Shown one piece after another: positions 6,365-53,549 of a DNA stretch of 64,000 bases. Origin of the DNA: a phage; the NCBI GenBank assembly GCA_024682255.1, contig GCA_024682255.1_4716.1. One strand, written 5' to 3'. Position numbers and translations under genes: made by a program. Each line of letters starts with the position of its first letter. The stretch's first letter is position 1. The notes beneath the pieces are model-generated. The model ran no database searches. It saw nothing but the letters and a program-made list of their open reading frames with translations, and was not told the origin of the DNA.

Positions 6365-6572
6365 CGTCAACCTCCATCTGATTGAAAACTATCACGCATA
6401 ACGCATTTCCCTTTTCTTGTTCTTATCAATCCGACAGCCGACGGTTTCAGCATCGTTCCTAGCGCGAGAACGACCTTACGTGTTGTCTATGCCTTATTCA
6501 TCGCAGGCGTCTGTCACCTAGGTAATGTAAGCGTCAAATTTTTTCTATTCGCAACGATAAACGGCATAGAAA

Positions 6573-6603
6573 CCTCCCCCAACCCTTACGGGCTGAGGGA
6601 GGC
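6573..6603 (-). terminator. GC-rich hairpin of the dispersed family, downstream of the 740-aa gene
   Basis: cctccc...gggagg arms 100 bp past the stop at 6702; preceded on the plus strand by catag, which is TATG on the minus strand after the hairpin. Confidence 0.55.
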
Positions 6604-6701
6604 TGACTTATGTATCACGGTGCCGGATGAATGTCCGGTGCAATGAAACCATCCGCAACGTTGTCGTCAAGAATATCATCCAACGAAGCAGCTACGGTAG
6701 T

Positions 6702-11344: not shown

Positions 11345-11371
11345 ACGCAAAAAAAAAAAGATTGTACGGTT

Positions 11372-11403
11372 CCCTCCTCCAACCCGTAAGGGAAGGAGGA
11401 GGG
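11372..11403 (-). terminator. Hairpin of the dispersed family between convergent genes
   Basis: ccctcctcc aacccgtaa ggaaggagggaggg, with an A11 run at 11348-11358 on the plus strand (U-tract on the minus strand). Confidence 0.6.
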
Positions 11404-11419
11404 GTTATGACCGCTTTGA

Positions 11420-14632: not shown

Positions 14633-14687
14633 TTTGTATCCTCGGTTGTTAAGAGAAATTTACAATGATAACAGTAACCGTTGTTAT

Positions 14688-14717
14688 CACCTAGGTAATG
14701 TAGTCGCGAAATAAACT
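14688..14717 (-). promoter_or_regulatory. Conserved leader motif CCTAGGTAATGTAGTCG[C/T]GAAATAAACTG, copy 2 of 3
   Basis: Near-identical to 53449-53473 and partly to 6515-6529; in each case it lies between an upstream hairpin and the next minus-strand start codon. Confidence 0.45.
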
Positions 14718-14735
14718 GGATTAGACAGCATAGAA

Positions 14736-14767
14736 CCCTCTCCCAACCCGTAAGGGAAGGGAGAGGG
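14736..14767 (-). terminator. Hairpin of the dispersed family (core type ccctctccc aacccgtaa gggaagggagaggg)
   Basis: A 12-bp stem with a symmetric AA/AA internal loop and a four-nucleotide loop, sitting between the stop at 14774 and the next gene; catag precedes it on the plus strand. Confidence 0.6.
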
Positions 14768-14773
14768 AATATA

Positions 14774-15407
14774 TCACCAATGATCGAAGGAACCAGGAGT
14801 GTTACGAACGATCTCAACTTGGAAGGTTATTGGTGTTGATGGCAATGAAACATATTCGCGTTGCGATAGCGGGACGTTGTCTTCTCGCTCATCGATGCGA
14901 GCGGAACCTGTCAGAAATTGGAACATAGCGACTTGAAGCTCATCGGTGAAACGGAGGTACTCACCGATGTGTGGTGTTGCATCATATCGAATAAGTACGT
15001 TGCCAAACCGTCGTGCGATATTTGGAGTATCTGTGAACGAAACAGGGAAATCCAAAGTCATTCCCATCGTTTCACCCGGCTTCATTTTCCGAATCGACGC
15101 AATTGGCACGTCGAAGATATTCCATTCTTCTTTCATCGTGTCTGGAAACACACCGCGATACAAGATGGTCTTTTGATGACGATGAACGGGTTGTAAACGG
15201 TCAACCAATATTTTCAAAGGTTTAAGTTCTTCAGCCAACTCATAATCTGCTTGGATGTTCCACTTTGCCGCAAGTTCCATTAGGTTGGGATACGCGCTAT
15301 ATTTATTGACGATAGTCCAGTTAACATTACGCAAATCAATAGGAAGGAATTTGATAATTTCCTTGTTGAATATCCATTGGTTTAATTTCTTAATCTCCGA
15401 AAGCATG
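14774..15407 (-). CDS. hypothetical protein (about 211 aa)
   Basis: Start taken at the ATG at 15405-15407 (MLSEIKK), just after the stop of the upstream gene at 15423; the track's longer ORF would overlap that gene. Confidence 0.6.
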
Positions 15408-24129: not shown

Positions 24130-25236
24130 TTAAAAGTAATATTTCAGCGCCTCGCGAGAGACATCAAGCATAGCCGCCGTTGAATTCGTAAAGAACTCGG
24201 CATAGCCCACAAGCGGCACCTTGATCCACGCGGTATACGCTGTAAGGTATCGAGAAAGGGCTACCATAGCATCATCAGAAGCAGTAGTAACTGACAACTG
24301 ACCTTGTTGACGATAAACGTCGTTAAGTTTTGCTTGTAGATTCCCTGCGATTTCGAGTAACTCGTTGGCGTACTTTTTACGATGGTAACTAACCAGCAAA
24401 TCAACACCCGTATTTACAGACTCGAGTAGCACACCAACTTGTTCTAATGTTGGCATTGTAACCACCATATCCCGTTCAACGGACGGTACATCCTGGACTT
24501 CAAACCGTGCGGATTGAATAGCAAGGGATTGTTGAATTGGACCAGAACCTGAGGCGGTAACCTGATCGAGTCGCAGCACACGGTTGCCCAGTAACGTTAC
24601 GTTGACGAGTCTCGATTCGTTCAGCGTACTGTAGACTTTATGCAATAACGTGTACGCATCACGGTTAATCACATCGATTAATGCGGTATCCGTCTGTTTT
24701 AAGATAATGTCGAGCGCTCTATCTAACGTATTAGCGAACTGCTTGAAATCATCACGGAATGACGAAGACAAGAGATATTCAGCGATTGCTAAATTCTGCT
24801 TGTATAACGTATTCCCGGTCGTGAAATCGAACCCAAAACTGTTTCCATACCGTAGGTGCGGAGCCAGCGTTGACGAAGCTTCGAAGCTTTGCGCGATGGG
24901 TTTACGACCAACGGCTTTTGTGTAATGACGACGGATGTTACTGAGTTCAAGTTGTAGTGCGCGACTACGATCGATAAACCGTGCGATAAACGCGGTGATG
25001 TTTCGCAACGTTGTCCAGATTGCATCGATGATAGCTTTGATGATTTTCATCGCAAGCTGATCGTACGATTCCATTGTGAGGAGATCAGCACTTTCTGTGG
25101 TATAACCGGTCGTCGGAATACCGCCTGCTTGCTGATAAATAAGCTGGTGAATTTGTCGTTGCGTTGCTGTCTCTGGCACAGGTAATGTTTTTAACAAGCT
25201 TAACGCTTGAATCTGTCCATCATAGGTCTGCAGCAT
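24130..25236 (-). CDS. hypothetical protein, member of a tandem paralog family (possible virion internal protein)
   Basis: The track's start at 25287 overlaps the upstream gene; the in-frame ATG at 25236 with GAGGAAA is used. Shares a hydrophobic helix-like core with the next three genes. Confidence 0.6.
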   Translation of the reverse strand: MLQTYDGQIQALSLLKTLPVPETATQRQIHQLIYQQAGGIPTTGYTTESADLLTMESYDQLAMKIIKAIIDAIWTTLRNITAFIARFIDRSRALQLELSNIRRHYTKAVGRKPIAQSFEASSTLAPHLRYGNSFGFDFTTGNTLYKQNLAIAEYLLSSSFRDDFKQFANTLDRALDIILKQTDTALIDVINRDAYTLLHKVYSTLNESRLVNVTLLGNRVLRLDQVTASGSGPIQQSLAIQSARFEVQDVPSVERDMVVTMPTLEQVGVLLESVNTGVDLLVSYHRKKYANELLEIAGNLQAKLNDVYRQQGQLSVTTASDDAMVALSRYLTAYTAWIKVPLVGYAEFFTNSTAAMLDVSREALKYYF

Positions 25237-26521
25237 TGCTGGTTTCCTCAAGTTCGAGATGCGCATCAAGATAATCATTAAGACCATCGATGACGTCGCA
25301 GACAGTTAACAGGAATCGGGCAAAAGCGACCGCCTGGAAGCCGACGACGTTACGCGCGATACCTACACGTTGAACGATAGCGGATGCGGCGGTATCGTTG
25401 TTGTCCATCTGTTGTAGCAAACGCTCGTAAGGTTGAATCCATTCGTCCTGGTCGGCAAGGCTTGCTTCAAGACAACGCTTAAATTCTAACTGTCGCAGCG
25501 TAGACCATAACGTACTTAATGCGTTGATGATTGCGTTGGTTCCGTCGATAACATCGTTTAACGGCAAGAAACGGAATCCGTCTTTTGCTGATTGGAAAGA
25601 TACGGCTTCCCACACAACGCTGAACTGCGTTCCTGTTGCGTCTTCGATGTTGTGTAATTTAAGATAGGAAGCACCAACAGGTACGTCAACGACCAGATCG
25701 TCTGTTCCGGTAGGCGTTAACGGCTTCTCGCATAACGCATCGTTGATGACTTCGAGGATATTCTCCCAACAGGCTTCGTTTTCTGCAGCGATACCTTCTT
25801 TGTTATCCGCTGATGGTGCTTTTAGTAGCTGCATTAATAACGGATCAAGTTGACGATGCCATGCTGCGAGGATTCCTGTGTTCGTTACGATGTTTTCTGC
25901 GGTTTGTCGTAAATCAGCAATACTGCTTACCGCACCGCCTTTCGGATGAAGATACCGCCAGTTATAAGGAAAGTTCTCCCAGAATGCGTTATCTTCATTA
26001 ACGTCGTATTCGGAAATATTTTTCAACGCAGTCGCTTTCTTTAATAACGGCTTCACCTGACGAACGAATCGACGATAACAACGATTGCAGATATCGATCG
26101 CGTAGCGGTACAATTCGTTCATGTAAAGCCATAACGCTCGGGTTGCTTCTTTTGCGGTCTTGTCAAAACTTTCCATGTTCAGGCTCATTCCGCTGGAAGT
26201 TTCCTCTTCCAGACCCTCGATGATGTGGTTTGGGTCCATTCCCATTCCAGCTGCTGCGGTCGATGCGATATGTTTGATGGTGCTGATATCGCGTTCTTCA
26301 ACTTCAGCCATGTTTGGGACAATATCCAGCCTGAGTTTATTTAATGTTTGAAGGTGTTGTTCACCTTCTTTCATCACCGTGTTTGTTTCGTCGATTGAGT
26401 GAAACTGATTCTCAATATTACCGGCATCGAGAATATTGCCAGCGATACCGAACGATTCTACAGGTTCATCATCAATCCCTTGAAACAACGATGTCATGGG
26501 TTGTTGTAACACGTTTTCCAT
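25220..26521 (-). CDS. hypothetical protein, tandem paralog family member (433 aa)
   Basis: ATG at 26521 with AGGAG upstream. Core ISTIKHIASTAAAGMGMD...ATRALWLYMNELYRYAIDI aligns with the neighbours. Confidence 0.8.
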   Translation of the reverse strand: MENVLQQPMTSLFQGIDDEPVESFGIAGNILDAGNIENQFHSIDETNTVMKEGEQHLQTLNKLRLDIVPNMAEVEERDISTIKHIASTAAAGMGMDPNHIIEGLEEETSSGMSLNMESFDKTAKEATRALWLYMNELYRYAIDICNRCYRRFVRQVKPLLKKATALKNISEYDVNEDNAFWENFPYNWRYLHPKGGAVSSIADLRQTAENIVTNTGILAAWHRQLDPLLMQLLKAPSADNKEGIAAENEACWENILEVINDALCEKPLTPTGTDDLVVDVPVGASYLKLHNIEDATGTQFSVVWEAVSFQSAKDGFRFLPLNDVIDGTNAIINALSTLWSTLRQLEFKRCLEASLADQDEWIQPYERLLQQMDNNDTAASAIVQRVGIARNVVGFQAVAFARFLLTVCDVIDGLNDYLDAHLELEETSNAADL

Positions 26522-26628
26522 TTGGGACTCCTACGTAGGAAAATCTTGGCGGGTGATCATGTCCGCCATTTACCTTCTGAACCGTTGATTCAGAAGTCAA
26601 AAGATAACCGGATACCAACGCCATAAAA

Positions 26629-26660
26629 CCTTCCTCCAACCCAACAGGGAAGGAGGAAGG
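26629..26660 (-). terminator. Hairpin of the dispersed family (ccttcctcc variant)
   Basis: Arms ccttcctcc / ggaggaagg carry compensatory changes relative to the core type. Confidence 0.55.
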
Positions 26661-26670
26661 GATATGGTGA

Positions 26671-27960
26671 TTATGCTTTTTCGGTTACAGCATCGAAATA
26701 TTTCGCTGCGGCAAATACAGCATCTGCATATTGACGGTTAGCAACACGGAGAATCTTAGCTGCTAATACCGCGCTCAATCGCGCCATTTCAGAAATGGCG
26801 CTTATATAAGGGCGAACGGTTTCACGATCTGCTTCCGGTAGATTGTCGAGCATACCGTCCCATTTAGTTTTAATTTTCATACCGTTTAGTTTAGCGGTAC
26901 GTTCGACAGTACTCGTTAAACTTTCTGTCTGGCGAAAATACGCGGGGTCAACGACACGAAACGCGTTAAGATACGAAGTCAGTGCGGCTTTCAATTCGTC
27001 GTCGTTATTGAAAATGTTCGCGTTTTCGATACTACCGGTCGCGGTTTCTTCAACTTCGATCTGAATATTCTTCACGAGCGCGCAGGCCTTAATGGTATCT
27101 TTCTCAGCCAAAAGAGCGTCAAGACCTTTAACAACATATCGTTTCCCACCGCTTTCTGGTATTTTGAGTCCTTTTAACGCAGGCTTGATGGCGTAAATAT
27201 AATCGTCCAGAATATCGGCAAGTGTCGTCAAATCGGTTAGTTTATTAACTTTCTTGTTAATGTCGTCAGTTTGGAGTAGTAAAAAAGCGGATGCTTGTGT
27301 GGATGCCGCTAACTGCTCAATATGTTTACGAACCTCCAACGCGTTAACCATTTTTGCGTTAGGGAACATGCTAATCATATTCCCGGTCGGTTTATTTAGT
27401 TGTTTGATGTGACGCTCGCCTTTATTTACAGCGGTTGCAACATCGGTAATTTTTTTATACGCTACCGCAAGGTTTTTGAAAAGCAGCTGAATCAGTTTAC
27501 ATAGCTGTTCAGCCATGTTCGCAATGATTACCCAAACTGCGTATAACGCTTGCGCAGCGCGTTCTTTAAAGCCTTCCAGCACAATAGCTTGCCCTTCCAC
27601 CAAACGATCGTCAGCTTGGAACATGTCTTCATCAGACATCCCCAGGTTAGCTGCTGACGTCGAAGCAATCTGACGGATAAGGGCGACGTCGCTCGCACGT
27701 GCTTCCGAGATCGTTGGTGCGATCATGTACGCTGTATCTTCCAGCGTTGCTGAGGTACGCACTGCAATTTCAGCCAGTTCGCTGGATTCATCGATCGTCT
27801 CGTCGGTGCGTCGAATCACCAACTCAACTTCGTCCTCTTCGATTTCCGCGTTAGGATCATTTTGCTCCGTCGGAATTGCCGCAAGAAGATCTTCGGCGCT
27901 GAGCAATGCGAGTTCGAATGCGTTTTTATTGACGTTATCGAAAAGAGAGATGCGGGCCAT
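26671..27960 (-). CDS. hypothetical protein, tandem paralog family member (429 aa)
   Basis: ATG at 27960 with AAGGAA upstream. Core TISEARASDVALIRQIASTSAANLGM...EGFKERAAQALYAVWVIIANMAEQL. Confidence 0.8.
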   Translation of the reverse strand: MARISLFDNVNKNAFELALLSAEDLLAAIPTEQNDPNAEIEEDEVELVIRRTDETIDESSELAEIAVRTSATLEDTAYMIAPTISEARASDVALIRQIASTSAANLGMSDEDMFQADDRLVEGQAIVLEGFKERAAQALYAVWVIIANMAEQLCKLIQLLFKNLAVAYKKITDVATAVNKGERHIKQLNKPTGNMISMFPNAKMVNALEVRKHIEQLAASTQASAFLLLQTDDINKKVNKLTDLTTLADILDDYIYAIKPALKGLKIPESGGKRYVVKGLDALLAEKDTIKACALVKNIQIEVEETATGSIENANIFNNDDELKAALTSYLNAFRVVDPAYFRQTESLTSTVERTAKLNGMKIKTKWDGMLDNLPEADRETVRPYISAISEMARLSAVLAAKILRVANRQYADAVFAAAKYFDAVTEKA

Positions 27961-29286: not shown

Positions 29287-29334
29287 GTGTTGTCTCCAGT
29301 AATGATTCAAAAGATAAACCTGGACGGCATAGAA

Positions 29335-29366
29335 CCCTCTCCCAACCCGTCAGGGAAGGGAGAGGG
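29335..29366 (-). terminator. Hairpin of the dispersed family (core type, loop cccgtcaggg)
   Basis: ccctctccc / gggagaggg arms, preceded by catag on the plus strand. Confidence 0.6.
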
Positions 29367-29388
29367 AATATGTCAGTTTATTAACTGA

Positions 29389-30717
29389 TTACTGCTGTGC
29401 TGCGTCAGCCGGTTTCTCAGCCGCCTGGCCGCCGTACTCTTTCAGCATTTTAGCAACACCATCCAGGACAGCGTTACCTGCCTGAACACCGTATTTCATC
29501 AGACCAGTCTGCGGGTTCACGTAGCAGGAACGTGCGTCTTTCAGTGCAGACAGTACAGCTTGAACACGCTGTTTTTCCTGAGCGGAAACTTCGCCTTTCT
29601 TAGACAGATCGGCTTCCATATCGTCACCGAATTTAACAGCGTCTTTGAAGCCCTGGGATTTCTTACCGATGTTGCCTTTCAGCGCCAGCAGTTTGTCAGC
29701 CAGTACTTCAACACCGCTAACCGCAGCGGCCAGCTGATTCGGAGATAGAACTTTAGCCTCTTGCTGCAGCGCAGTAATGGCGTTAGCACCGCGTTCCCAG
29801 GTTACTTTCCCATCTGTGGTTTTGAATCCCCAATCGTTCGGACCTTTAACGTCAGCGATTGCTGGTGCGTTCAGTTTATCAGTGTATTCGGTGTGGGACT
29901 TAGATTTGACTAACCCAACGAATTTATCAGCACGATCGTCAGCAGCCTTCATTGCTTTCTCGAAGGTGTCAGTGATTTTAGTCGCCGCGGTAACCAGATC
30001 AAGGCCGCCGATATAACCTGTAGCGCTACCCAGTAAAACTTTATCGTTCTTCGGAGTACCTTTACGTTTGGCGATCATTTCTTTCAGTTTAGCAGCACGT
30101 GCTTTCAGTTTGGTCGCGCCGTCGAAGATACGATCCATGAACTTCACGAAGGTTTCCCAGGAAGTTTTCAGGAAGTTCTTGATGGTTGCCCACAGTTTCT
30201 GCCACCATTTTTGTTCTTCCAGGAAGATCATGTTGGTCGCATCGTAACGGGAAGCGGAACCACCGAAGCTTTCGAAGGACGGCATGGTTTCCGGCATTTT
30301 GAAACCGATAGTACCACACAGACGTTTCAGATTACGCATGTGTTCCTGAGCGGTCTGTGCAGACATACCGCCGTCTTTCAGGTAGCTTTCGGTTGCAACA
30401 ACGGTTTCCGTCAGTTCGTCCATGGCTTCATCCATGGCTTCTGCGGTTTCGTCGTCTTTTGCAATTTCGATAACAACAGCATCAACCTGCTCGATATCAC
30501 CACGAACTTCGATAGCCAGTTCGGTTTCAGCTGCGGTATCTTCAGCGATTTCAGCACGTTCGGTCAGCTCAGCCACAACGGTTTCATCCGCTGGTGCAGC
30601 ATCAGCTGCCGGTTCTGCTTCAACGGTTGCCGCTGCATCCGGATCGATCTCAGCAGCCAGTTGAACCAGCTGTGCGTTAGATGGATTTGCGACAAGACGA
30701 TCAAAAATAGAAGGCAT
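29389..30717 (-). CDS. hypothetical highly expressed protein (442 aa), possibly related to the paralog family
   Basis: ATG at 30717 with AAGGAAA upstream; strong codon bias; acidic Ala/Glu-rich N-terminal region. Confidence 0.75.
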   Translation of the reverse strand: MPSIFDRLVANPSNAQLVQLAAEIDPDAAATVEAEPAADAAPADETVVAELTERAEIAEDTAAETELAIEVRGDIEQVDAVVIEIAKDDETAEAMDEAMDELTETVVATESYLKDGGMSAQTAQEHMRNLKRLCGTIGFKMPETMPSFESFGGSASRYDATNMIFLEEQKWWQKLWATIKNFLKTSWETFVKFMDRIFDGATKLKARAAKLKEMIAKRKGTPKNDKVLLGSATGYIGGLDLVTAATKITDTFEKAMKAADDRADKFVGLVKSKSHTEYTDKLNAPAIADVKGPNDWGFKTTDGKVTWERGANAITALQQEAKVLSPNQLAAAVSGVEVLADKLLALKGNIGKKSQGFKDAVKFGDDMEADLSKKGEVSAQEKQRVQAVLSALKDARSCYVNPQTGLMKYGVQAGNAVLDGVAKMLKEYGGQAAEKPADAAQQ

Positions 30718-37594: not shown

Positions 37595-37616
37595 AACAAA
37601 ATAGCATGAGCATAAC

Positions 37617-37648
37617 CCTCCTCCAACCCAACAGGGAAGGAGGAGGGA
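37617..37648. terminator. Bidirectional hairpin between convergent genes (ccctcctcc variant)
   Basis: Lies between the plus-strand stop at 37594 and the minus-strand stop at 37657. Confidence 0.6.
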
Positions 37649-37656
37649 ATATGCTG

Positions 37657-41343: not shown

Positions 41344-44139
41344 TTACGCTAATTTACCGAAACCGGCTTTCTGTAGTTTCTCGTTGATCAGTTTTGCTTC
41401 CGCGAAAACATAATCACGATACGCAGTCACTAACCCGTCCACCCGTGAGCGCAAGGCTTCTTCGAAGCTATACCACGCAGCGATTTCACGAATCTGTGCG
41501 TTGATATAATCAACGGTTGAGCGAAGCTCGGTTGCGTTTTCTTGCGGGATGGCTTTCACCTGGCGAGCAACGTCATTTAAACGACGGAACTGTGTTTCGA
41601 TTTCTTTAAACTTACTGTCCGCAAGTTTGCTGAATTCGTCACCGGAACGGGTGAATAACAGATAGCTGTTGCCGTCAAGTGCGGTTGCTAACTGCTGAAG
41701 TACGTTGGTGTCCGGATACACAGGAGTACCGCTTTGCAGTACTTTCTCACCGAATTCCGCGAAGTCCTTCGGTGGTAAGTGTGCAGACGTTGTCAACTCG
41801 TTGAAACGGAAAGTCAGCGAATTATCATACAGCATCCGGTACGCTTCCATACCCTGTTTCATGGTACCGGCCAGGTTAGCCAGACGCGGAGCAATCTCGC
41901 CTTCTTTAGCGCGTTTCTGGTCTTCTAACGCCCCTTCGAGTTCTTTACACTGGTCGTTCAGATACACGATACGATCGGGACGCAGACGACGCATCTCACG
42001 AAGAATAGTATCCAGCTTACCTTCCTGGAAATAACCTAACGTTAAAGACGTACACGCTTGCTGAAGACGATCGAACACCGGTAAGGTCACCATCTCCTTA
42101 CGGATACCATCAACAATCGCAGAAACAGCCGAAAGTTTCTGTTCTGTCGTTAATGGAACATCAGAGACCGACTTGCTGGGCGCACCAACAACGTTACGCA
42201 TTGCGTCGGTATCCTCGGTTTTATCAACCTCTTTACGAACATGCTCATCAGGAACATAAACGTTCGCGTTACGTTTCGCCTGCTTGATGGCGTCGTTGGC
42301 CGCTTTTTCGGTGGCCGCTACGCTATCGGCACGTTTCTTCAAGAGTTCAATAATCCAGAGCAACAGACGACGAATCGCTGTATAGGCGGTCGTGATGATG
42401 ACACCGATAACAGCCATCTTCATGATACCGAACGATTCCATGGTCGGCTCTAACGCCTGGTCCGGCATATACCGTTCACGCAGCTCCAGATAGATCTGCT
42501 CATCTGGTTTGCTGACCTCACCACGATGTGAAGTCCGATAGATGGCTTCGTCAATCTCAACAAGATCTTTGCGTGCCTGGCGATCGGATTCTGTTAAGTA
42601 AGCACAACCGGATACGTCGTCTTCGAAGCTTAAGAATTTGAAAAAGTCGCTGACATCGACGTTGACCTTCTTCGCTTCATTGTCAACGTTAATGAAATCC
42701 GTTTTACGAGACTGCTGTTGAATCTTAATATCCTTTATCGGTTTAAGCGCTTTGTCTTTTAATGCCTGCATGATCTGTTTCCAGCTGGCATCGCGTTCAA
42801 GAACAAGGAAATAGTTCTTGAGTTCGAATGCGCGATAGCGGGCAACAAGTTGTTCTACCTGAACATGAGCGAGTTGTACGTCCATCAGCCAACGCGACAT
42901 TGCCGAGATCAAACGGCTATAAGCAAGCAGCGTCTGATACGTCAGCTTCATGTGTTTCTCGTACAGCTCAATATCGCCGTCTTGAATATCAGCCGTTGGG
43001 TTCATTTCCTTCGTTGCTTTGAAGATTTGTTCGGCTTCATTTAACGTTTGTTCGAATTTGACTTCATTAAACGTGTCAAACGGTTCGGCCAACTCTACCA
43101 TTCGATCGTGAAGTTCACGAACCCAGGCTTCTTTATTGTTGCGAATAGCTGCGTCATCGTGAAGTTCAGTTTGATGTTTCTGTACCCATTCTTCGACGAT
43201 ATCAGCGGCGGCAACAATTCCTGTACCATCGGAAACTAACGGAACAACTCCAGCAAGTACGCCTACACATGCTGGGGTTTTCCAATAATCGTTCAAAGCG
43301 TTTCTGAATTCAACGATGGATTGTACGTTTGGTACTGTGTCCAAAAACGTACTGCCGTTACGGCTCATTGTCGTTACGATATCAGCGAATTCCTTCTGCT
43401 TAGCGGTAACAAAAGGAACCAGGACCATAAGCCATTCAGCAACCGATTTCGCTTTTTCTTTCAGGTTCTTGTCAGCGATTTCTTTAAGGTTTATCGCACC
43501 ACCGTAACCTGCAAGCTCTTTATATACGTCGCTAAGGGTCATCTGTTTATCCAACATTTCTTTGAAACGTGGATAATCAGCACCTAACGCATCGATAATA
43601 TCGTTGATTACGTCATCGGTTGTTGCAATAAACTTCTTCGTATCAACGTTTGAATATTTCCAGACGTACCGTACGGCTTTCTTGATTCCCGCAAAGATAA
43701 ACGCCCAAATACGCTTGATGAGTTCCCAGACTTTCTTCGCACCGTCGACAAACAGTTTAGAGACCTTGGCAACGAATCCTTCCTGTACCAACTCAACGCC
43801 GTTCCGTGATGGGATTTCGGTGAAGAAAGCATCTGGCAGTTGTTTCGGGAATGCGTCACCAAGACGCATACGCAGTTCCGGTACATCAGCACGAGAAATG
43901 CCGCGTGTTACTAACTGTTCGTGAAGACGAACGTTTTCTTCGCCAGAGGTCACGAATTCGTCAACATCGAAGGAGACCATTGCTTCCTGATCTTCGGTGG
44001 TAACGACGCTTGAACCGTCGCTGGTTTGGATGTCCTCGTCAGGGAACGCCATGAGCATACCGTGACGCATTTCAACCACTCCGTAATCGGTTGCTAAACC
44101 GAATTCGTTGTGATCGGGGGTAATAACCGGGATACTCAT
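41344..44139 (-). CDS. hypothetical large protein (931 aa) with one internal hydrophobic segment
   Basis: ATG at 44139 overlapping the upstream stop; hydrophobic MAVIGVIITTAYTAIRRLLLWIIELL in mid-protein. Confidence 0.8.
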   Translation of the reverse strand: MSIPVITPDHNEFGLATDYGVVEMRHGMLMAFPDEDIQTSDGSSVVTTEDQEAMVSFDVDEFVTSGEENVRLHEQLVTRGISRADVPELRMRLGDAFPKQLPDAFFTEIPSRNGVELVQEGFVAKVSKLFVDGAKKVWELIKRIWAFIFAGIKKAVRYVWKYSNVDTKKFIATTDDVINDIIDALGADYPRFKEMLDKQMTLSDVYKELAGYGGAINLKEIADKNLKEKAKSVAEWLMVLVPFVTAKQKEFADIVTTMSRNGSTFLDTVPNVQSIVEFRNALNDYWKTPACVGVLAGVVPLVSDGTGIVAAADIVEEWVQKHQTELHDDAAIRNNKEAWVRELHDRMVELAEPFDTFNEVKFEQTLNEAEQIFKATKEMNPTADIQDGDIELYEKHMKLTYQTLLAYSRLISAMSRWLMDVQLAHVQVEQLVARYRAFELKNYFLVLERDASWKQIMQALKDKALKPIKDIKIQQQSRKTDFINVDNEAKKVNVDVSDFFKFLSFEDDVSGCAYLTESDRQARKDLVEIDEAIYRTSHRGEVSKPDEQIYLELRERYMPDQALEPTMESFGIMKMAVIGVIITTAYTAIRRLLLWIIELLKKRADSVAATEKAANDAIKQAKRNANVYVPDEHVRKEVDKTEDTDAMRNVVGAPSKSVSDVPLTTEQKLSAVSAIVDGIRKEMVTLPVFDRLQQACTSLTLGYFQEGKLDTILREMRRLRPDRIVYLNDQCKELEGALEDQKRAKEGEIAPRLANLAGTMKQGMEAYRMLYDNSLTFRFNELTTSAHLPPKDFAEFGEKVLQSGTPVYPDTNVLQQLATALDGNSYLLFTRSGDEFSKLADSKFKEIETQFRRLNDVARQVKAIPQENATELRSTVDYINAQIREIAAWYSFEEALRSRVDGLVTAYRDYVFAEAKLINEKLQKAGFGKLA

Positions 44140-44576
44140 GCATTCTCTCCTTGCAGTGCGTTAGCGAAAGCTGTTGCAAGTTGTGCGACCAGTTTCGGGT
44201 CAACGCCTTCGATAACGTCAGGCAGCCCTGCGGTTTCTTGGTCACGAACAGCGGAGGCTAATAACAGCATGGTTTCAGGTGCAGTTGGCTCATGCACCAT
44301 GCGGTAACGCAGGCACCAGAAGTAGCGAGCAACGTCTAACGCATCAGCTAACCCGATAACCAGTACCTTGTTCAGCTTATCCAGCCCTTCACGGATTTTA
44401 GGGAGATGTTCGCGAACGAAAATGCTATCTGCGGTCAGATCTTCTTTTTCAGCGAATACGGGCATGCTGTAACCAGCAATGTAACCAGCGGCAATACTTA
44501 ACGCACGGGTCTGTTGTTCGGCCGGGAAATCACGAACCAGGTCTTTCAGCTGAACGGCGAAATCAGAAATATTCAT
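44136..44576 (-). CDS. hypothetical protein (146 aa)
   Basis: ATG at 44576 with AAAGGAA upstream. Confidence 0.75.
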   Translation of the reverse strand: MNISDFAVQLKDLVRDFPAEQQTRALSIAAGYIAGYSMPVFAEKEDLTADSIFVREHLPKIREGLDKLNKVLVIGLADALDVARYFWCLRYRMVHEPTAPETMLLLASAVRDQETAGLPDVIEGVDPKLVAQLATAFANALQGENA

Positions 44577-44608
44577 GTTAAATTCCTTTATAGTAAAAAT
44601 AGAAGAGA

Positions 44609-45919
44609 TTAGGCGATAATGGAATCAAGAGTCGCTGCGGTTTTGAACAGATCGCTGTTCATTGTAGAAGAAAGGGCTTGCTGAATTTCTTCCTGTTTAA
44701 CCGCCTTACGAACCCCAGGACGAAGGGCGATAGTCACCATTTGCATGAACGTACGGTTGTTGTTCATTTCTTTCAGTGTATCATCGATTGTTTTAATCGT
44801 GTCTAGCGTAGTTGAACGGATATCGTTAGGGAGATCGCGATCTTTCAGGCGTATAATCAGATCCTGTTTGATCTTACGGAATCGTTCCATATCGTTATCG
44901 TAAATGTTGTATGTTGGATCTAACCAAACTGCAAGCGCCATAGCGGCAACAAATATTGCCATACCGAGAATATTAACCGAGGTGAAGCTGATTGCAATCA
45001 GAATAGCCACGGCGGCATCTTTAATGAAGGAGAGCCAGAACATCGTTTTGGACTTCATGGAGTCTTTGCTATAATACCGATACATTTTAGCAAGCCCGCT
45101 AACGAGATACTCCCCACCACCATGACGTGTAGCGAACTGATCAGCCATGAATTCGGAAGCAACGTCGGTATATCGTCCAGCGTTGTTTACATTTCGTAAT
45201 TGCATCGCTTTGTTAGATACGTAAACCGTGTACCAGACACTACCATCGTCTGAATCACTGATTTTGTCTACGTCGACGTTGGTATCCAGCGTTTTGTTTA
45301 ACGCTTTCGCCAGTTCGATACGTTTTACCTTATCGGTTGTCCCCAACAGTTCACGCTGCACGGTCATGATTGAGGCTTCGACACGAACCGTTTCCGACAA
45401 TGTTTCGAGGAAAGTAAACGCATGACCGATTTCATGCAGCATTATGGCCGCTTTTTCTTCCGGAAGAAAGGGTTCTGTCGCTGCTAGCAGTTCATACGTG
45501 ATGGCAGAACGAATCTTCAACTCCTCAAAGATACCGTAAACACGACCTTTTTCTAAATCGACGTAACCGACAGGCGTATCTTTAATCTTCTTAAGGAGCG
45601 TAACACCATCAGCACCACGCATCCATAACCGATGATAGTCTGCCAAGATCGTGTTGTTTGTCGAAATATCCGGCGGGTACACGTAGGCATTCATCTGGCC
45701 CATTTTCACGTCGACCGAGAATTCGATGTTCAACCCCGTATAGCGTTTAACCATCTCGGTTAAACGACCGTCCTTGAAAACGTTTAAAACATCTTTTTTA
45801 TCCAGTCCCTGTTTGCTTCTGAAGAACTCGGTCATTTCCTTGAACAAGGAACCATCCTGAAACTTGATGGCTTCCATCGTTAATTCGTCATGACCATACA
45901 CGCGTTGTAGTAATGACAT
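44609..45919 (-). CDS. putative membrane-associated zinc metallopeptidase (HEXXH motif)
   Basis: ATG at 45919. The translation contains AAIMLHEIGHAF (HEIGH zincin signature) and, further C-terminal, a run of about 45 hydrophobic residues consistent with two transmembrane helices. Confidence 0.5.
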   Translation of the reverse strand: MSLLQRVYGHDELTMEAIKFQDGSLFKEMTEFFRSKQGLDKKDVLNVFKDGRLTEMVKRYTGLNIEFSVDVKMGQMNAYVYPPDISTNNTILADYHRLWMRGADGVTLLKKIKDTPVGYVDLEKGRVYGIFEELKIRSAITYELLAATEPFLPEEKAAIMLHEIGHAFTFLETLSETVRVEASIMTVQRELLGTTDKVKRIELAKALNKTLDTNVDVDKISDSDDGSVWYTVYVSNKAMQLRNVNNAGRYTDVASEFMADQFATRHGGGEYLVSGLAKMYRYYSKDSMKSKTMFWLSFIKDAAVAILIAISFTSVNILGMAIFVAAMALAVWLDPTYNIYDNDMERFRKIKQDLIIRLKDRDLPNDIRSTTLDTIKTIDDTLKEMNNNRTFMQMVTIALRPGVRKAVKQEEIQQALSSTMNSDLFKTAATLDSIIA

Positions 45920-45930
45920 TGTACACTCTC

Positions 45931-45948
45931 TAAATTTACGTAAATTTA
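45931..45948. promoter_or_regulatory. 18-bp perfect palindrome in a divergent intergenic region
   Basis: taaatttacgtaaattta equals its own reverse complement; it sits 12 nt upstream of the metallopeptidase start codon, overlapping its leader. Confidence 0.5.
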
Positions 45949-46140
45949 AGGGCTAATGGATCGGCTGGCCGCACCAATCACAATGTGTCCGCTGCTATGC
46001 AACGGCATTCATAGAAATACCTTTTGACGGTAACATCACCCATCACACCCCAAGCAATAAGAGTGGTCGGTTAAAAACAACAGAACGTGGGGATGATATA
46101 GAAAATCACCTTTTAACACTTATTACGAGTTTATCAAGCC

Positions 46141-47640
46141 ATGAGCGAACAAGAACGAAAACCTAAGAAGAAACTGCTCGGTATTCAATGTCGACACATC
46201 AGCTATAACGAAGCGAACGATGGCAGCAAGAACGACCTCATGATCGCAAAAGAGATCATGTTCTTTGATGATAATACGCAAGCGACGAACCTTCGCTTCT
46301 TCGAGAATTACAAACGTCCGTTTTGGGTGACGGTAGAGAGTAAACGTAAGAACAAATATAAAAAGGAAAGCGAGAAGCTCTCGCACGTACGTCGCTATGA
46401 TGTCCGTCAAAGTGAACTGGTTGAAAAGATCAGTTCGGTGCTTTATAAAAGACGTGCTGATGATAACACCCGTTTACAGCAGCTTGCACGGAGTCCATAC
46501 CTCTATGGAACGGACGTTAGCGCTAGCTGTTATTTAAAAACCCAATACAATACAAAATGGCCGGAATACGTCGATAAATTACCCGCTTCCATCGCCTGTT
46601 TCGATATCGAAACCGACGTTGTCCATGGACACGGTAAGATCGTCTGTATGTCTATTACAATGGGATACAATGCGATCCTTTGCTATACCAAGGACTTCGT
46701 TGGTCATATTCCGAATGCGATTGAGAAAACCCATGAGAAGATTCGATATTACCTGGCCGAACGTCTAAACACCAAAGAAGATCCGCACGCATTTGAAAAA
46801 TATCAGTACGATGTGCGAATCGTAGAAAGTCCGGCACAAGCGGTCATCCAATGCATGCAGAAGGTTCACGAATGGCAGCCGGATTATCTCCTTGGCTGGA
46901 ATATCGCGTTCGATATTCCGCGCATGCTCCAGGCACTGAACGAAGAAGGGTATCGTCCCGAGGATGTTTTCTCCGATCCCCGTGTACCACCTAAGTATCG
47001 TATTGCTCGCTGGGTACCACCGAAGACCGACAAGGTATCTGCTTCAGGGCGTAAAACCAACCTTACCCTTGAGCAAACCTGGCCGATGTTTTATACGATG
47101 GCTACGTATCAGGTTATGGATGCGATGTGTGGTTATAAGTTCGTTCGTTTAGGAAGACCGGATGAGGGACGTTATTCACTCGATGCGGTATTAGAGCGAA
47201 ATAAATGCCATACGAAATTAAAAGCAATTCCTGGTACAGAAGGGTTCACAGAGCTTGCGTGGCACGAAGAGATGCAAACGAACCATCAAATCGACTACGG
47301 TGTATATAACCTTTGGGATAACCAAGGCATCGAGGCGTTGGACCAGAAAACAAAAGACTATTCGATGACCATCCCTATCCGTTTAGCGGCGTCGGATTTG
47401 AAAGATTTCAGTTCTAACCCTAAACGTATCTGCGATAAACTTTTCTTCGTTTATCTTAACCGTGGGGAAGTCATGGGCTGCACTGCCGACGACATGACCC
47501 AGGAAGAAGATAAGTGGGTTATCTCACGAACCGGACATATCGTCACATTGCCGTGCGATCTCATGGCGGACAACGGCATCCATCTCTTCTGGGATATGCC
47601 GAACCTGAGAAGTTATATTAGATTATTTGTTGCGGATTAA
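46141..47640 (+). CDS. DNA polymerase N-terminal/3'-5' exonuclease domain protein (499 aa as annotated; the C-terminus may be spliced)
   Basis: ATG at 46141. Exo I ACFDIETD, Exo II GWNIAFDIP and Exo III YGVYNLWD are present at family-B-like spacing. No polymerase motifs A, B or C are present, consistent with a split polymerase. Confidence 0.6.
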   Translation: MSEQERKPKKKLLGIQCRHISYNEANDGSKNDLMIAKEIMFFDDNTQATNLRFFENYKRPFWVTVESKRKNKYKKESEKLSHVRRYDVRQSELVEKISSVLYKRRADDNTRLQQLARSPYLYGTDVSASCYLKTQYNTKWPEYVDKLPASIACFDIETDVVHGHGKIVCMSITMGYNAILCYTKDFVGHIPNAIEKTHEKIRYYLAERLNTKEDPHAFEKYQYDVRIVESPAQAVIQCMQKVHEWQPDYLLGWNIAFDIPRMLQALNEEGYRPEDVFSDPRVPPKYRIARWVPPKTDKVSASGRKTNLTLEQTWPMFYTMATYQVMDAMCGYKFVRLGRPDEGRYSLDAVLERNKCHTKLKAIPGTEGFTELAWHEEMQTNHQIDYGVYNLWDNQGIEALDQKTKDYSMTIPIRLAASDLKDFSSNPKRICDKLFFVYLNRGEVMGCTADDMTQEEDKWVISRTGHIVTLPCDLMADNGIHLFWDMPNLRSYIRLFVAD

Positions 47641-47707
47641 GAAATAAATCGGTTAAGTTTTACCTCCTTTCTCGATAAGTATGATACTAAGCGAGCAAGG
47701 AGTTGAT

Positions 47708-48814
47708 ATGTCGAGTAGTTATGAGTATCCAAAGATTACTGAATGTGTTGTTTCCGAAGAAGGTATCTTCGACCTCGATATGAAGCCGTTACCACTTACC
47801 GTGGAAGATGGAATATCGTACGTCAAACTTGACTGGTACCGTGGTCCCGGTCTGTATGACGCAGGTCTTGTGGTAATGCGTAAACTGCATGCTATCAACA
47901 TATACGAAGATCTGTTAGACGAAGCACATTCGTTGTATATCGATGGGAACCCAGAAAACATCAAACGTGAGAACTTGCTTTATCGTTTCAAGAACGGTAA
48001 GTTGGAACACAAGGGTTATCCGGGCTATTACTACGTCCCTTTCTTTACACACTACGTGATAAACGAGCAAGGCGAAGTGATCAGTCTTTTAACCGGGCAA
48101 AAGAAATCATGGACACGGTCGAAAGGGGATCCGAAACGAAATAAGCGTGCTGGGTACTTATATCAGCGCGTCGTTAATGATAATGGTTTCACAGCCCAAA
48201 TGTTTCAACATCGTGCGATGGGTTACGTGTTCCTGGAATACGGTGCCGACGTGATGACAAAGATCATCAACCACATAAACGGCATCAAATGGGATAATCG
48301 TCCATGCAACATTGAATGGACAACCTATTCTGAGAACAACAAGCATGCGATTGATAGCGGTCTTCGTACAGAAGGCTTACATCCTGTTAAGGTTAAGGAT
48401 TACAACACCGGTGAGGTTAGGGTATTCCCAACAATCGCTGCGTGCTGTGCTGCTTATCCATGCTTGGAACGTAAACGTGTTTGGTATTGGATGACGCGTA
48501 AAACGAAATTCATGCCAGCCTGCAATCTGTATTTCAAAGAAGTCGATGATGATACTCCGTGGCCAGATTGGCAAATCGGACAGCACCGTCGTCTTCAGGA
48601 ATACGATATGGGCCACCCTATCGCAGCTATCGATAAGCAAACCGGTAAACGTTATGTGTTTGCATCAATTGCTCACGCACAACGAGAGACGGGTGTTTCT
48701 AACGTGACTATCACGAAGTACTGTCGTAATAGACTTACAGAAGGTCGTTCTCCATTCATCTTCCGCTATTTTGAAGATGTTAGTTCGATGCCTGTAGGCC
48801 TTAACGACGCTTAA
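47708..48814 (+). CDS. HNH homing endonuclease
   Basis: ATG at 47708 with AAGGAG seven nt upstream (an alternative ATG at 47681 exists). HNH motif INHINGIKWDNRPCNIEWTTYSENNKHA and a C-terminal helix-turn-helix-like segment GKRYVFASIAHAQRETGVSNVTITKYC typical of phage homing endonucleases. Confidence 0.8.
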   Translation: MSSSYEYPKITECVVSEEGIFDLDMKPLPLTVEDGISYVKLDWYRGPGLYDAGLVVMRKLHAINIYEDLLDEAHSLYIDGNPENIKRENLLYRFKNGKLEHKGYPGYYYVPFFTHYVINEQGEVISLLTGQKKSWTRSKGDPKRNKRAGYLYQRVVNDNGFTAQMFQHRAMGYVFLEYGADVMTKIINHINGIKWDNRPCNIEWTTYSENNKHAIDSGLRTEGLHPVKVKDYNTGEVRVFPTIAACCAAYPCLERKRVWYWMTRKTKFMPACNLYFKEVDDDTPWPDWQIGQHRRLQEYDMGHPIAAIDKQTGKRYVFASIAHAQRETGVSNVTITKYCRNRLTEGRSPFIFRYFEDVSSMPVGLNDA

Positions 48815-48899
48815 CCGATTTTAGGTCCCGGTGGGGATAACGCCCCCACCGGATTCCCGTTAATTGCTGGAACCCCCTAAAGCCTTTCGACCACAGCGG

Positions 48900-49200
48900 A
48901 TTCTGAAAAGAAAAACGCGATGGTTAGAAAACAGAAAGGATGTTCGTAAGGAAGCGATAAATGGGCAATCAGCAGCGAAGCTTCTAAGGGCGTGCGTTAG
49001 CAATAAGACCTAAGAAGAACGTTCAACGACTATCCGGTCGCGCGGAGTAAGGGACAAGCGTCCCCAAACACGGGAGGGGTGCGAAAGCATTCCATGATAT
49101 AGTCTGCTCCTAAGTGAAAGCTTAGGCGGGTGGCACACACCGGCATAAGAGTTGCGTCTTATGTGGACAATGGCTTGACATCTCCTCGTCCTACCCGAAT
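48900..49200 (+). ncRNA. putative group I intron catalytic core (boundaries approximate)
   Basis: Non-coding, GC-rich stretch after the endonuclease gene. P7-like pairing GACUA (49028-49032) with UAGUC (49100-49104), a candidate P8 hairpin gggac-aagc-gtccc (49051-49064) between them, and a P9-like hairpin cctaag-tgaaag-cttagg (49109-49126) directly after, in the canonical order. Confidence 0.45.
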
Positions 49201-49475
49201 GGGCAGATCCTGTTGAATCTATCCAGAGCATGTGTTTTTCGTGAGCTCTCACGCATTGAGGGCGTCTCTGACTATCAATTCAGGAAGTTAGGTATCAACT
49301 TTATTACCGGAGGTAAAACGAACGCTGTAGACTTCTGTAGAATCGTTTATAAAGCACCGTCGATGTTTGAACTTTTAGAACATTTCGATGCGACGCGTCC
49401 AAAAGAGGAAGCACGGACCATCGAATGAATCAAGTATGTTGATCCTCGTTTAACAAAAAAGAAAACGCATGCGAA

Positions 49476-49513
49476 GCCCCTCCCCCTGGCGGAAGCCGGA
49501 GGGAGGGGTGGGG
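49476..49513. terminator. Bidirectional hairpin between convergent transcription units
   Basis: cccctcccc...gggagggg arms with a 15-nt loop, preceded by an A-rich stretch. Confidence 0.55.
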
Positions 49514-49514
49514 T

Positions 49515-50000
49515 TTATGTGTGTTCGTTGCCAACTTTCACTTTGTAATCAGCATCGGTTAAGAAAATAGACAGGAATCCATGTTCTTTGCAAATCTGAC
49601 TAAGGATGTCAGCAATGATTTCGTTGATCATCGGTTTGTTTGCAAGGGCATAGATGTACCCGGGTGTAAAAGAAAGTGCATGATTGATCATAGGCTCATG
49701 AGAAGCCAAGATAAGGATCACGTGATGCTTCCCATCGTCGGTAACGACCGCTTGCGTAGACACGAAGAAATCAGTGAAGCAGCAGCGATCACAGGCTTTA
49801 GGTATATACAAATCACCCAGAGCTTCGTCACGTGCTTTTACGTGTGTTTCAGGGGTAATGCTGCTAAGTTGATCTTCAGCGAGATCCAAGACATCCTCAA
49901 TCGTTTTAAGAATAGCGTTGCGGAAATCCTCGCGGTAGAATGGGATGATATCACGATCGTTCATGTAATCGCCGGATTCGATAGTAAAGTTGATGTTCAT
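49515..50000 (-). CDS. hypothetical small protein (161 aa), member 1 of a nine-gene array
   Basis: ATG at 50000 with AGGAG upstream. Confidence 0.75.
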   Translation of the reverse strand: MNINFTIESGDYMNDRDIIPFYREDFRNAILKTIEDVLDLAEDQLSSITPETHVKARDEALGDLYIPKACDRCCFTDFFVSTQAVVTDDGKHHVILILASHEPMINHALSFTPGYIYALANKPMINEIIADILSQICKEHGFLSIFLTDADYKVKVGNEHT

Positions 50001-50050
50001 TGAATGCTCCTAGTGGTTATGTCGATTGATTGATGTATTGATTTATGTTT

Positions 50051-50069
50051 GAAGGTGTTGTTCACCTTC
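50051..50069 (-). terminator. Hairpin gaaggtg-ttgtt-caccttc adjacent to a stop codon
   Basis: 7-bp stem immediately after the stop at 50071; part of the exact 25-nt repeat also found at 26344-26368. Confidence 0.5.
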
Positions 50070-50070
50070 G

Positions 50071-50511
50071 TTAGATATCATCATCCGTGGTGCCGTAGGA
50101 CATATGCTGAATTAATTTTCTCGGCTCGATGAAAATACGACATGTGATAAACACATCGGGATCGTATTGCTCCACGCAACGTCCGAAGGCTTGTTTTGCG
50201 GCTTGACGCACCGATGTTATTTCCTGATCGTTCATCGCATTATCGAATTCGATGTTGATCGTGATTTTATCGGGAAATAAATAGATAAAGTAATCGCCAC
50301 TGATACCACCATCATCAAAGTGACGTTCATTGTAACACTGGACGAGCTTACCTTCACGTTCTTTCTGATACCATCCAAGGATACTATTAAGACCTCTGTC
50401 CACGCATTCGAATGCTTGAGTAATAACATCCTCAACGACGGAGGCTGCCGTGGGACCATTGAATAGACGATCTAAGCGCTTTTTCATCGATTTGTCGGTT
50501 TTCATGTTCAT
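50071..50511 (-). CDS. hypothetical small protein (about 146 aa), array member 2
   Basis: The track's start at 50538 abuts the hairpin at 50543-50573 with no ribosome-binding site; the internal ATG at 50511 (MNMKTDK) with AGGAAAAG upstream is preferred. Start is uncertain. Confidence 0.6.
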   Translation of the reverse strand: MNMKTDKSMKKRLDRLFNGPTAASVVEDVITQAFECVDRGLNSILGWYQKEREGKLVQCYNERHFDDGGISGDYFIYLFPDKITINIEFDNAMNDQEITSVRQAAKQAFGRCVEQYDPDVFITCRIFIEPRKLIQHMSYGTTDDDI

Positions 50512-50542
50512 TGTTTCTTTTCCTGTTATAGTCAACATATAG

Positions 50543-50573
50543 CCCTTCCCCGGCCTTGACGGCTAGGGAAGGG
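50543..50573 (-). terminator. Hairpin of the dispersed family (cccttccc variant)
   Basis: cccttccc...gggaaggg arms; catatag precedes it on the plus strand. Confidence 0.5.
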
Positions 50574-50588
50574 TATGTTTACGTATAT

Positions 50589-50984
50589 TTACTCTTTGAC
50601 GTCAGTTGTCGTTTCGACATGCTTCTCACTACTGACGTACCAGAGCAGGTACGCTGGGAAAAGATTGACCTCTAAGCTAAATGGGATATTGTATTTCTCT
50701 TCCATTTTACAGAGATGTTCTTTAAGTAAATTTCTCGCGTCTCTGTCACCACGAACAGAGTGCCAGTCTAGTTCTTTGTTCTCCTTTACCAGGACCTCTA
50801 CGATGATACGTTGCTCGTGAACCTCGGTTTTCACAGTGAAAAGTAAATCGCTGCTATCAAAACGGGTAAAACGAATGTATGAACCTGGTGTTTTTTCTTG
50901 TTTAATAATATCGATCATGGTAGAAATGCGCGGATGATCGATGTTGTCGTTAACAGCTTTAACGATGGATTCTACAATGCTCAT
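50589..50984 (-). CDS. hypothetical small protein (131 aa), array member 3
   Basis: ATG at 50984 with AAGGAT upstream; AT-rich region upstream. Confidence 0.75.
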   Translation of the reverse strand: MSIVESIVKAVNDNIDHPRISTMIDIIKQEKTPGSYIRFTRFDSSDLLFTVKTEVHEQRIIVEVLVKENKELDWHSVRGDRDARNLLKEHLCKMEEKYNIPFSLEVNLFPAYLLWYVSSEKHVETTTDVKE

Positions 50985-51141
50985 TTTTTATCCTTAATGT
51001 TATCGATTTAGAAATATTACTTAATTACTGTTTTATTTATCGATGGTTGTTACCCATGATGGGAAAGCCGGATGGAAACAGAGCGTGAACGTAACCTTCG
51101 TATCGTATTTAATCGCTGAACTTTATCTTTGATAGACATGA

Positions 51142-51600
51142 TTACCCCTTAGCTCCTTCTTCGTCTGGAGAGTATTCCATCGTGTAGAATTCATAACCAT
51201 CGGAAAACTTGAGTGTTAATGTAATAGGGAAATCGCACGGCATAGCTGATTTCGTAAATGCGTTATTAGCAACATCAGCCAACCGACGTATAGCATCGGT
51301 CCCGCTGACGCTGAACGGTAGTTGTATGTTGATAAGGATACGACGCTTGTAAACATAGAAAACAACGGTACTGTCGAGATAAACGCTATGGAACGGTATT
51401 GTTGGGATGCGTTCCACAATGGTAAAATACGTCCCGTCATTATCGCTATGCCCCATCGACCAAATATCGGATTTGCGTAGATTTTGTTTGAGGGATTCGA
51501 TACTTCGAGTGACGGTCTCAGCAACAGGCGTGACGTAAGTGTCTCTATGCGAGTCGAAAAGTTCGTTGACGTTAGATTCGAATGAATACATTGTTGCCAT
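51142..51600 (-). CDS. hypothetical small protein (152 aa), array member 4
   Basis: ATG at 51600 with GAGGTAG upstream. Confidence 0.75.
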   Translation of the reverse strand: MATMYSFESNVNELFDSHRDTYVTPVAETVTRSIESLKQNLRKSDIWSMGHSDNDGTYFTIVERIPTIPFHSVYLDSTVVFYVYKRRILINIQLPFSVSGTDAIRRLADVANNAFTKSAMPCDFPITLTLKFSDGYEFYTMEYSPDEEGAKG

Positions 51601-51626
51601 TTTCTACCTCAATAGTTTAACCGGCA

Positions 51627-51652: not shown

Positions 51653-51666
51653 ATATCATCGATTAA

Positions 51667-53536: not shown

Positions 53537-53549
53537 AATATTAAAATTG

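Follow-up and report, generated by a model that had tools for sequence, protein, structure and literature searches.

A 25-nucleotide hairpin repeat in a Goslar-like jumbo phage: probably a scar of illegitimate recombination in an accessory-gene array

Introduction

An exact stretch of 25 nucleotides lies inside the gene of a virion protein and again, 23.7 kb away, as a hairpin beside the stop codon of a small accessory gene. What is the origin of the second copy, and does the hairpin have a function? The question arises in a phage DNA of 64,000 nucleotides (the window, by which we mean this whole stretch), which comes from a relative of Escherichia phage vB_EcoM_Goslar with 91-96% identity to it. 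vB_EcoM_Goslar is a nucleus-forming jumbo phage (Goslarvirus). Nucleotide identity to Goslar is 95.8% over window positions 25000-27000 (Goslar 59380-61380) and 91.4% over 49400-50700. A first-pass annotation of the window had proposed that the repeat could be an internal terminator or attenuator, a processing site, a protein-binding operator or a recombination footprint, and we compared the two copies across related genomes to weigh these readings.

Results

The window contains two exact copies of the 25-mer, ATGTTTGAAGGTGTTGTTCACCTTC, one at 26344-26368 and the other at 50045-50069, on the plus strand in both cases, and a match search of the 64-kb window with up to three mismatches found no further site; the repeat reported by the first-pass annotation is thus confirmed. 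The genes at both sites are on the minus strand, and each copy lies on the sense strand. The annotation had also judged a chance repeat very unlikely, in keeping with a shuffle control in which 0 of 100 shuffles contained any match and with our own estimate that about 2e-6 exact 25-mer pairs are expected by chance in 64 kb. When all exact repeats of at least 16 nt in the window were enumerated, those of at least 20 nt were GC-rich hairpins, the 25-mer and one 22-mer. The identity of the two copies extends to 29 of 31 nt (repeat family D13), and outside this extended match the flanks have no significant similarity in an anchored test (P = 0.39 upstream, P = 0.17 downstream). The junction that holds the intergenic copy is identical in four independent ENA/Logan assemblies from different samples, and this copy is therefore not an assembly artefact. 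Nothing beyond the shortness of the repeat speaks for a coincidence or an assembly or sequencing artefact; given the shuffles, the chance expectation and the recurring junction, we consider that reading already refuted and its probability negligible.

The coding copy is located in the ortholog of a Goslar virion protein gene:

25220..26521, minus strand: gene with the donor copy; Goslar_00055 (gp55) ortholog, PF12699-fold virion protein ("inner body" family)
26344..26368, minus strand: donor (ancestral) 25-mer copy; sense GAAGGTGAACAACACCTTCAAACAT; codons 52-59 plus 1 nt, encoding EGEQHLQT
26350..26368, minus strand: coding-copy hairpin; 7-bp stem and 5-nt loop, -12.2 kcal/mol in a 61-nt context, followed by AAACAUUAAAUAAA

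In sense, the coding copy reads GAA GGT GAA CAA CAC CTT CAA ACA T within the protein context ..VMKEGEQHLQTLNKL.. of the gp55 ortholog. Searches of Pfam and PHROGs gave no direct family match for the gp55, gp70 or gp71-like proteins, and the PF12699 context of gp55 was taken from the neighboring gp58 ortholog (29389-30717), which matches PF12699 directly (2.3e-19), and from a preprint in which gp55 is predicted to have the PF12699 ("phiKZ internal head protein") fold and to be present at ~50 copies per virion (bioRxiv 10.64898/2026.04.21.720040). The first-pass label of 25220-26521 as a paralog gene is borne out, as this gene and 26671-27960 encode distant paralogs (BLASTP E = 5e-10, 23% identity over 126 aa).

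An exact scan of viral and metagenome collections recovered the coding 25-mer in Goslar and six other relatives, and each of these seven contigs has one copy, in every case at gp55. Two genomes of a second clade, 81-82% identical in nucleotide sequence over the gp55 gene, have the exact 25-mer there as well. Since the coding copy is identical across relatives that include clade 2, it is ancestral. None of the 25 positions varies among ten coding copies and five spacer copies, and hence there is no covariation to assess. Members of the second Goslar-like clade itself (L025 and L026; genomes of ~247 kb; gp55 ~86% identical in amino acid and ~81% in nucleotide sequence) are plentiful in ENA/Logan assemblies, as they are in those labelled Salmonella, Shigella and E. 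coli.

Two other readings of the coding copy were rejected. An antisense ORF that begins at the ATG of the 25-mer (26344-26538, 64 aa) has no ribosome-binding site and no conservation argument in its favor, and the same antisense reading at the spacer copy spans only 9 codons. The cleavage motif of the prohead protease is S/A/G-X-E, which the KEGEQ at the coding copy does not fit.

The same gene contributes to a second exact repeat. The 22-mer, AAAGAAGCAACCCGAGCGTTAT in sense, is found at 26131-26152 and 56640-56661 and lies 213 nt from the 25-mer in the gp55 gene. It encodes KEATRAL in the same frame in the otherwise unrelated gp55 ortholog (codons 124-130) and gp79 ortholog (56599-57477, near the C-terminus). 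The copy on the gp79 side is invariant in four genomes, and the one on the gp55 side has 1-2 nt changed in Goslar, in L013 and in clade 2.

The second copy of the 25-mer occupies the boundary between two small genes:

50071..50511, minus strand: gp71-like accessory gene, allele C; 146 aa from MNMKTD.., ending ..HMSYGTTDDDI-stop; the mechanical ORF extends to 50538
50045..50069, minus strand: derived ectopic 25-mer copy; insertion-deletion junction between the gp71-like gene and the gp70 ortholog
49515..50000, minus strand: downstream gene; Goslar_00070 (gp70) ortholog, 161 aa

This copy starts 1 nt past the TAA stop codon (50071-50073) of the ORF at 50071-50538, and 44 nt separate it from the start of the downstream ORF at 49515-50000; the whole gp71-gp70 spacer is 70 nt. 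The stop-adjacent hairpin described in the first-pass annotation is confirmed. The AGGAG ribosome-binding site and the 5' spacer of the gp70 ortholog are common to all alleles. At the orthologous gp71-gp70 boundary the spacer 25-mer is absent from Goslar, L007 and L032: the Goslar spacer measures 110 nt and lacks the element, and L007 has an additional gene there.

A search for homologs of the gp71-like protein returned 68 clusters, 6 of which end in ..SYGTTDDDI-stop as in the window. Most of the 68 end in ..SY(G/D)T(T/K)..DESNK(E/G)-stop, and the remainder have other C-terminal variants. Contigs for three DDDI proteins, from four assemblies (L018-L021), all have the same spacer and the exact 25-mer. 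Judging from these sequences, the spacer copy is a real, segregating minority allele, found only with a gp71-like gene that ends in DDDI-stop. The DDDI allele occurs on different gp71 backgrounds (P0001 versus P0022) and has therefore moved by recombination, and the spacer 25-mer is intact in all five genomes examined with the allele, although their flanks vary. An allele that has persisted, recombined and kept its 25-mer is at least not deleterious.

The surroundings are variable as well. From 49515 to 54417 there is an array of small genes (131-210 aa) with no family match, and these are polymorphic in presence and absence among close relatives, as seen across the window and loci L007, L018-L024 and L032. 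The gp71-gp70 boundary has at least four structural alleles, and the gp71-like proteins are mosaics of two N-terminal haplotypes.

Does the hairpin resemble a regulatory element? The stem, GAAGGTG/CACCTTC, has 7 bp and a 5-nt loop and folds at -10.1 kcal/mol (z = -4.9); in the spacer it occupies 50051-50069. We looked for a U tail on both strands at both copies by reading the tails directly and found none: the sense tails after the stem are AAACAUAAAUCAAUAC (spacer copy) and AAACAUUAAAUAAAC (coding copy), and the antisense tails are GUUAGAUA and UUUCAUCA. In particular, no U tract follows the coding-copy hairpin in sense. A terminator scan of 44000-57000, a range that includes the spacer copy and leaves the coding copy outside, did not list the spacer hairpin. 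With a fold at -3.6 kcal/mol (z = +1.0), the Goslar-type spacer of allele B is unstructured, and since such alleles exist, the hairpin is not required at the gp71-gp70 boundary. Perfect 7-bp stems with loops of 3-8 nt number 50 in the window versus ~25 in shuffles; such hairpins are common by chance, and so one inside a coding region is unremarkable.

In the complete Goslar genome (237,307 nt) the 25-mer has a single copy even at up to five mismatches, and the 19-nt hairpin core has no second copy at up to three mismatches. The first-pass annotation had named a lack of further copies, together with an uninterrupted transcript at the internal copy, as a sign against function, and the closest complete genome indeed has no further copy. 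A dispersed regulatory repeat would be expected in many copies genome-wide, and there are two in the window and one in Goslar; an intrinsic terminator would be expected to have a U tail, which is missing, and the hairpin is not conserved at the orthologous gene end. The proposed roles as a terminator or attenuator, a processing site or a protein-binding operator are not favored by the missing U tail, the silence of the terminator scan at the spacer copy, the lack of conservation at the boundary, the single Goslar copy and an allele-specific spacer copy. The paper on the RNA-binding protein ChmC gives no motif for binding and has no eCLIP data from Goslar, and a literature search found no Goslar transcriptome.

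Like an intrinsic (Rho-independent) terminator, the spacer hairpin is a stem-loop directly past a stop codon. The terminator-type hairpins of Goslar-like phages differ from it, in that they have long GC-rich stems of the form CCCTC(T/C)CC..GG(A/G)GAGGG that recur at many gene ends, whereas the 25-mer forms a 7-bp stem of mixed composition with no U tract. In the window this GC-rich family (D1) has the form CCCTC(T/C)CC AACCC-loop-GGG AAGG(G/A)GAGGG, with up to 48 nt identical between copies, and comprises eight copies, all between genes:

6560-6612: GC-rich hairpin
11360-11412: GC-rich hairpin
14724-14776: GC-rich hairpin
26617-26669: GC-rich hairpin
29323-29375: GC-rich hairpin
37604-37656: GC-rich hairpin
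53493-53545: GC-rich hairpin
60661-60713: GC-rich hairpin

In gene sense these hairpins are followed by a TATG-containing motif, and the equivalent sites in Goslar are annotated as putative terminators. A further motif, ..AGGTAATGTAG(T/C)CG(T/C)GAAAT.., adjoins three of them (6513-6550, 14686-14723 and 53442-53479) and may be a promoter motif. A related Goslar motif, TAAGTAATATAGCCGTGAAAA, is found at four sites (2557, 113787, 142790 and 166059), and the Goslar variant closest to the hairpin-adjacent motif of the window, AAGGTAATGTAGTCGTGAAA, is at 15057 and 86695.

A scan of the window against Rfam at gathering thresholds gave nothing at either copy of the 25-mer; its sole match is a group I intron (RF00028) at 48801-49126 on the plus strand (68.7 bits, E = 2.5e-15). 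The intron overlaps by 14 nt the 3' end of a plus-strand ORF for an HNH_3/NUMOD1 homing endonuclease (47681-48814), and both are downstream of a DNA_pol_B_exo1 gene (46141-47640). The Goslar record has group I introns annotated at two other places and none at the position matching 48801-49126. Upstream of the polymerase exonuclease domain gene, in the divergent intergenic region between 44609-45919 (minus strand) and 46141-47640 (plus strand), there is an 18-nt perfect palindrome, TAAATTTACGTAAATTTA, at 45931-45948.

Comparison of the structural alleles shows how the spacer of the window relates to the others. In the full-length loci L024 and L007, the gp71-like gene is followed by a 169-aa gene, a 142-aa gene ending ..SFKYTPSNIN-stop, and gp70. 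The Goslar-type spacer (allele B) is a deletion derivative of this arrangement in which the decayed start of the 169-aa gene (CTGAACCATAACAGCAAC versus ATGAGCCAGAACAGCATC) is fused to the end of the 142-aa gene, whose last codons, ..AKSLICSFKYTPSNIN-stop, are retained. Because the allele B spacer holds remnants of genes that are intact in L024 and L007, the order of events runs from the full array to the Goslar-type deletion and then to the window allele. L032, which has allele B, matches the window exactly as far as ..CACCACGGAT / ..GGCACCACGGAT, and then once more from TCAAACATAAAT onward. Between these identical stretches lie 84 nt in L032, compared with 30 nt in the window (GATGATATCTAAC then GAAGGTGAACAACACCT). 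The segments at this junction are:

50070..50082, minus strand: 13-nt filler GATGATATCTAAC (sense), which rewrites the C-terminus to ..TT-DDDI and gives the TAA stop codon at 50071-50073
50053..50069, minus strand: templated 17 nt GAAGGTGAACAACACCT (sense), found only in the gp55 donor gene and in allele C
50045..50052, minus strand: 8-nt microhomology TCAAACAT (sense), common to the donor, the window allele and alleles A and B; right-hand junction

With respect to donor identity, 17 donor-only nt and 8 shared nt replace 84 nt of allele B. The right junction has a microhomology of 8/8 nt, and the left junction is set off from the recipient by the 13 nt of filler, for which no template of at least 13 nt was found in the window or the Goslar genome, where there are only chance 11-12-mers. 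Alleles A and B hold sequence that is missing from the window allele, and hence the window allele is derived and not ancestral. The polarity of the two copies agrees with this order: the coding copy is present in both clades, and the spacer copy only in the derived DDDI allele.

One feature of the coding copy bears on nucleotide-level constraint. Between the two clades, 40% of the degenerate, amino-acid-conserved codons of gp55 differ, and the longest run without a synonymous change in the gene, 9 codons starting at codon 52, falls exactly at the 25-mer. In this one clade-to-clade comparison the synonymous invariance of the 25-mer has P of about 0.015-0.034 (0.025 for zero change in 8 codons with residue-specific rates). 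The run of unchanged codons is a weak hint of nucleotide-level constraint on the coding copy and not evidence of function.

Discussion

How did a piece of the gp55 gene come to lie behind the gp71-like gene? The identity of the two copies and its limits are observed, as are its confinement to one allele, the positions of the breakpoints, the greater age of the coding copy and the lack of further copies. We infer from them a mechanism, either a template switch or microhomology-mediated repair, and a lack of function. In our judgment the intergenic 25-mer is quite likely a scar of illegitimate recombination, with a regulatory role not supported by the evidence. Among the readings offered in the first-pass annotation, it is therefore the recombination footprint that is supported, by a spacer copy that is allele-specific and lies exactly at an insertion-deletion junction; those of a terminator, attenuator or operator are not supported.

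The probable course of events is as follows. In a single lineage, the gp71-gp70 spacer, which lies in a hypervariable array of small genes, would have undergone break repair or a template switch during replication. The 84 nt of Goslar-type sequence that were lost would have comprised the last gp71 codons and the spacer, itself a remnant of two deleted genes. The gap would then have been filled by 30 nt, of which 13, with no traced template, gave the new stop codon and 17 were copied from gp55, 23.7 kb from the spacer. Synthesis may have re-entered the original locus through the 8-nt microhomology TCAAACAT, which was already common to donor and recipient. The spacer hairpin would be a passenger, present since the donor segment happened to be self-complementary. 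It is tempting to speculate that the self-complementarity of the donor helped the nascent strand to dissociate. The HNH/NUMOD1 ORF and the group I intron, which are 1-2 kb away, could in principle raise the local frequency of breaks.

Some findings sit less comfortably with a scar. The left junction is not clean, and given the 13 nt with no template a simple two-switch model does not explain everything. The run of synonymously unchanged codons at the coding copy and the persistence of the DDDI allele also weigh against it. In addition, the 22-nt exact repeat also falls in the first 400 nt of the gp55 gene, and if donors were picked purely at random, two ectopic identities in the same gene segment would not be predicted. 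Goslar contains a few more isolated exact repeats 20-22 nt long, against ~0.03 expected by our own estimate, and thus short ectopic identities appear to be a low-level background feature of these genomes.

An alternative is that the hairpin is a functional RNA element (a stabilizer, a processing site, a protein-binding site or a weak terminator) that acts in the gp55 mRNA and that was recruited to, or selected at, the 3' end of the gp71-like gene. A stable fold placed 1 nt past a stop codon, a coding copy with zero synonymous change in a gene where ~40% of degenerate codons changed elsewhere (longest run, P about 0.025), and a spacer copy unchanged in five genomes with varying flanks would all suit such an element. 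Yet there are just two copies, one confined to a minority allele, and Goslar manages with a single copy genome-wide; alleles whose spacer is unstructured still function; a U tract, a terminator call at the spacer copy and an Rfam match are all lacking; hairpins of similar size arise by chance at ~25 per 64 kb; and the P value comes from a single clade-to-clade comparison in a repeat with no variation from which covariation could be read. We therefore regard a functional RNA as unlikely. A narrower form of this idea, to which we give an even smaller chance, is that the 25-nt hairpin is under nucleotide-level selection in the gp55 mRNA or DNA, for instance if it serves expression of the PF12699 virion-protein operon as a site of binding or processing, and that the gp71-like copy is a co-option spread by recombination.

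It is also conceivable that a longer gp55 fragment, of ~45 nt or more and once fused in frame as ..GTT-VMKEGEQHLQT-stop, decayed into the spacer copy, with later indels hiding all but the 25-nt core. A gapped local alignment does extend to CACGG-TGATGA..AA-GAAGG and ..TAAAT, with a score of 57 versus 50 for the core alone, both genes read the ACG/Thr codon in one and the same frame, and in the spacer the 25-mer, taken in the +1 frame, ends at a TAA. The anchored flank similarity is not significant, however (P = 0.39 and 0.17), and CACCACGGAT is already present in the ancestral recipient (L032), so that this part of the similarity predates the event. It would also be odd for the core to escape substitution while its flanks took three indels, and the 68 homolog clusters include no intermediate allele. 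A longer ancestral fragment is, in our view, improbable.

The probable recombination scar has counterparts elsewhere. Templated insertions ("filler DNA") at deletion junctions arise through microhomology-mediated template switching or end joining of the MMBIR/FoSTeS type, and short-homology illegitimate recombination has been described for phages such as T4 and lambda. As in templated insertions, the locus has a deletion-insertion junction at which a short tract matches a donor far away on the same molecule, an 8-nt re-entry microhomology, additional bases with no traced template on the other side, and flanks that lack extended homology. It differs from them in that the event is reconstructed from alleles in the population rather than seen to happen, a clear microhomology is lacking at one junction, and the system is a nucleus-forming jumbo phage. 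The locus also resembles the mosaic, hypervariable accessory arrays of phages, in which the gene set differs between close relatives and spacers hold remnants of deleted genes; such arrays are the setting of the event and not an explanation of the 25-mer. The event is of an ordinary kind in a phage accessory-gene array.

For the regulation of these phages the result is mostly a negative one: population comparison identifies a regulatory-looking repeat hairpin beside a stop codon as a rearrangement scar. If the synonymous signal in gp55 is confirmed, it would point to an uncharacterized nucleotide-level constraint in a gene of the inner-body family; and if the hairpin in gp55 is in fact selected at the nucleotide level, the 22-mer would be a second element, and the 5' part of gp55 would be a place where short shared cis-elements cluster. 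Short ectopic identities in Goslar-like genomes should accordingly not be read as cis-elements unless alleles have been compared. The gp71-gp70 boundary provides a concrete, datable example of how nucleus-forming jumbo phages remodel their accessory arrays, in which a gene deletion was followed by a deletion-insertion with a patch from 23.7 kb away.
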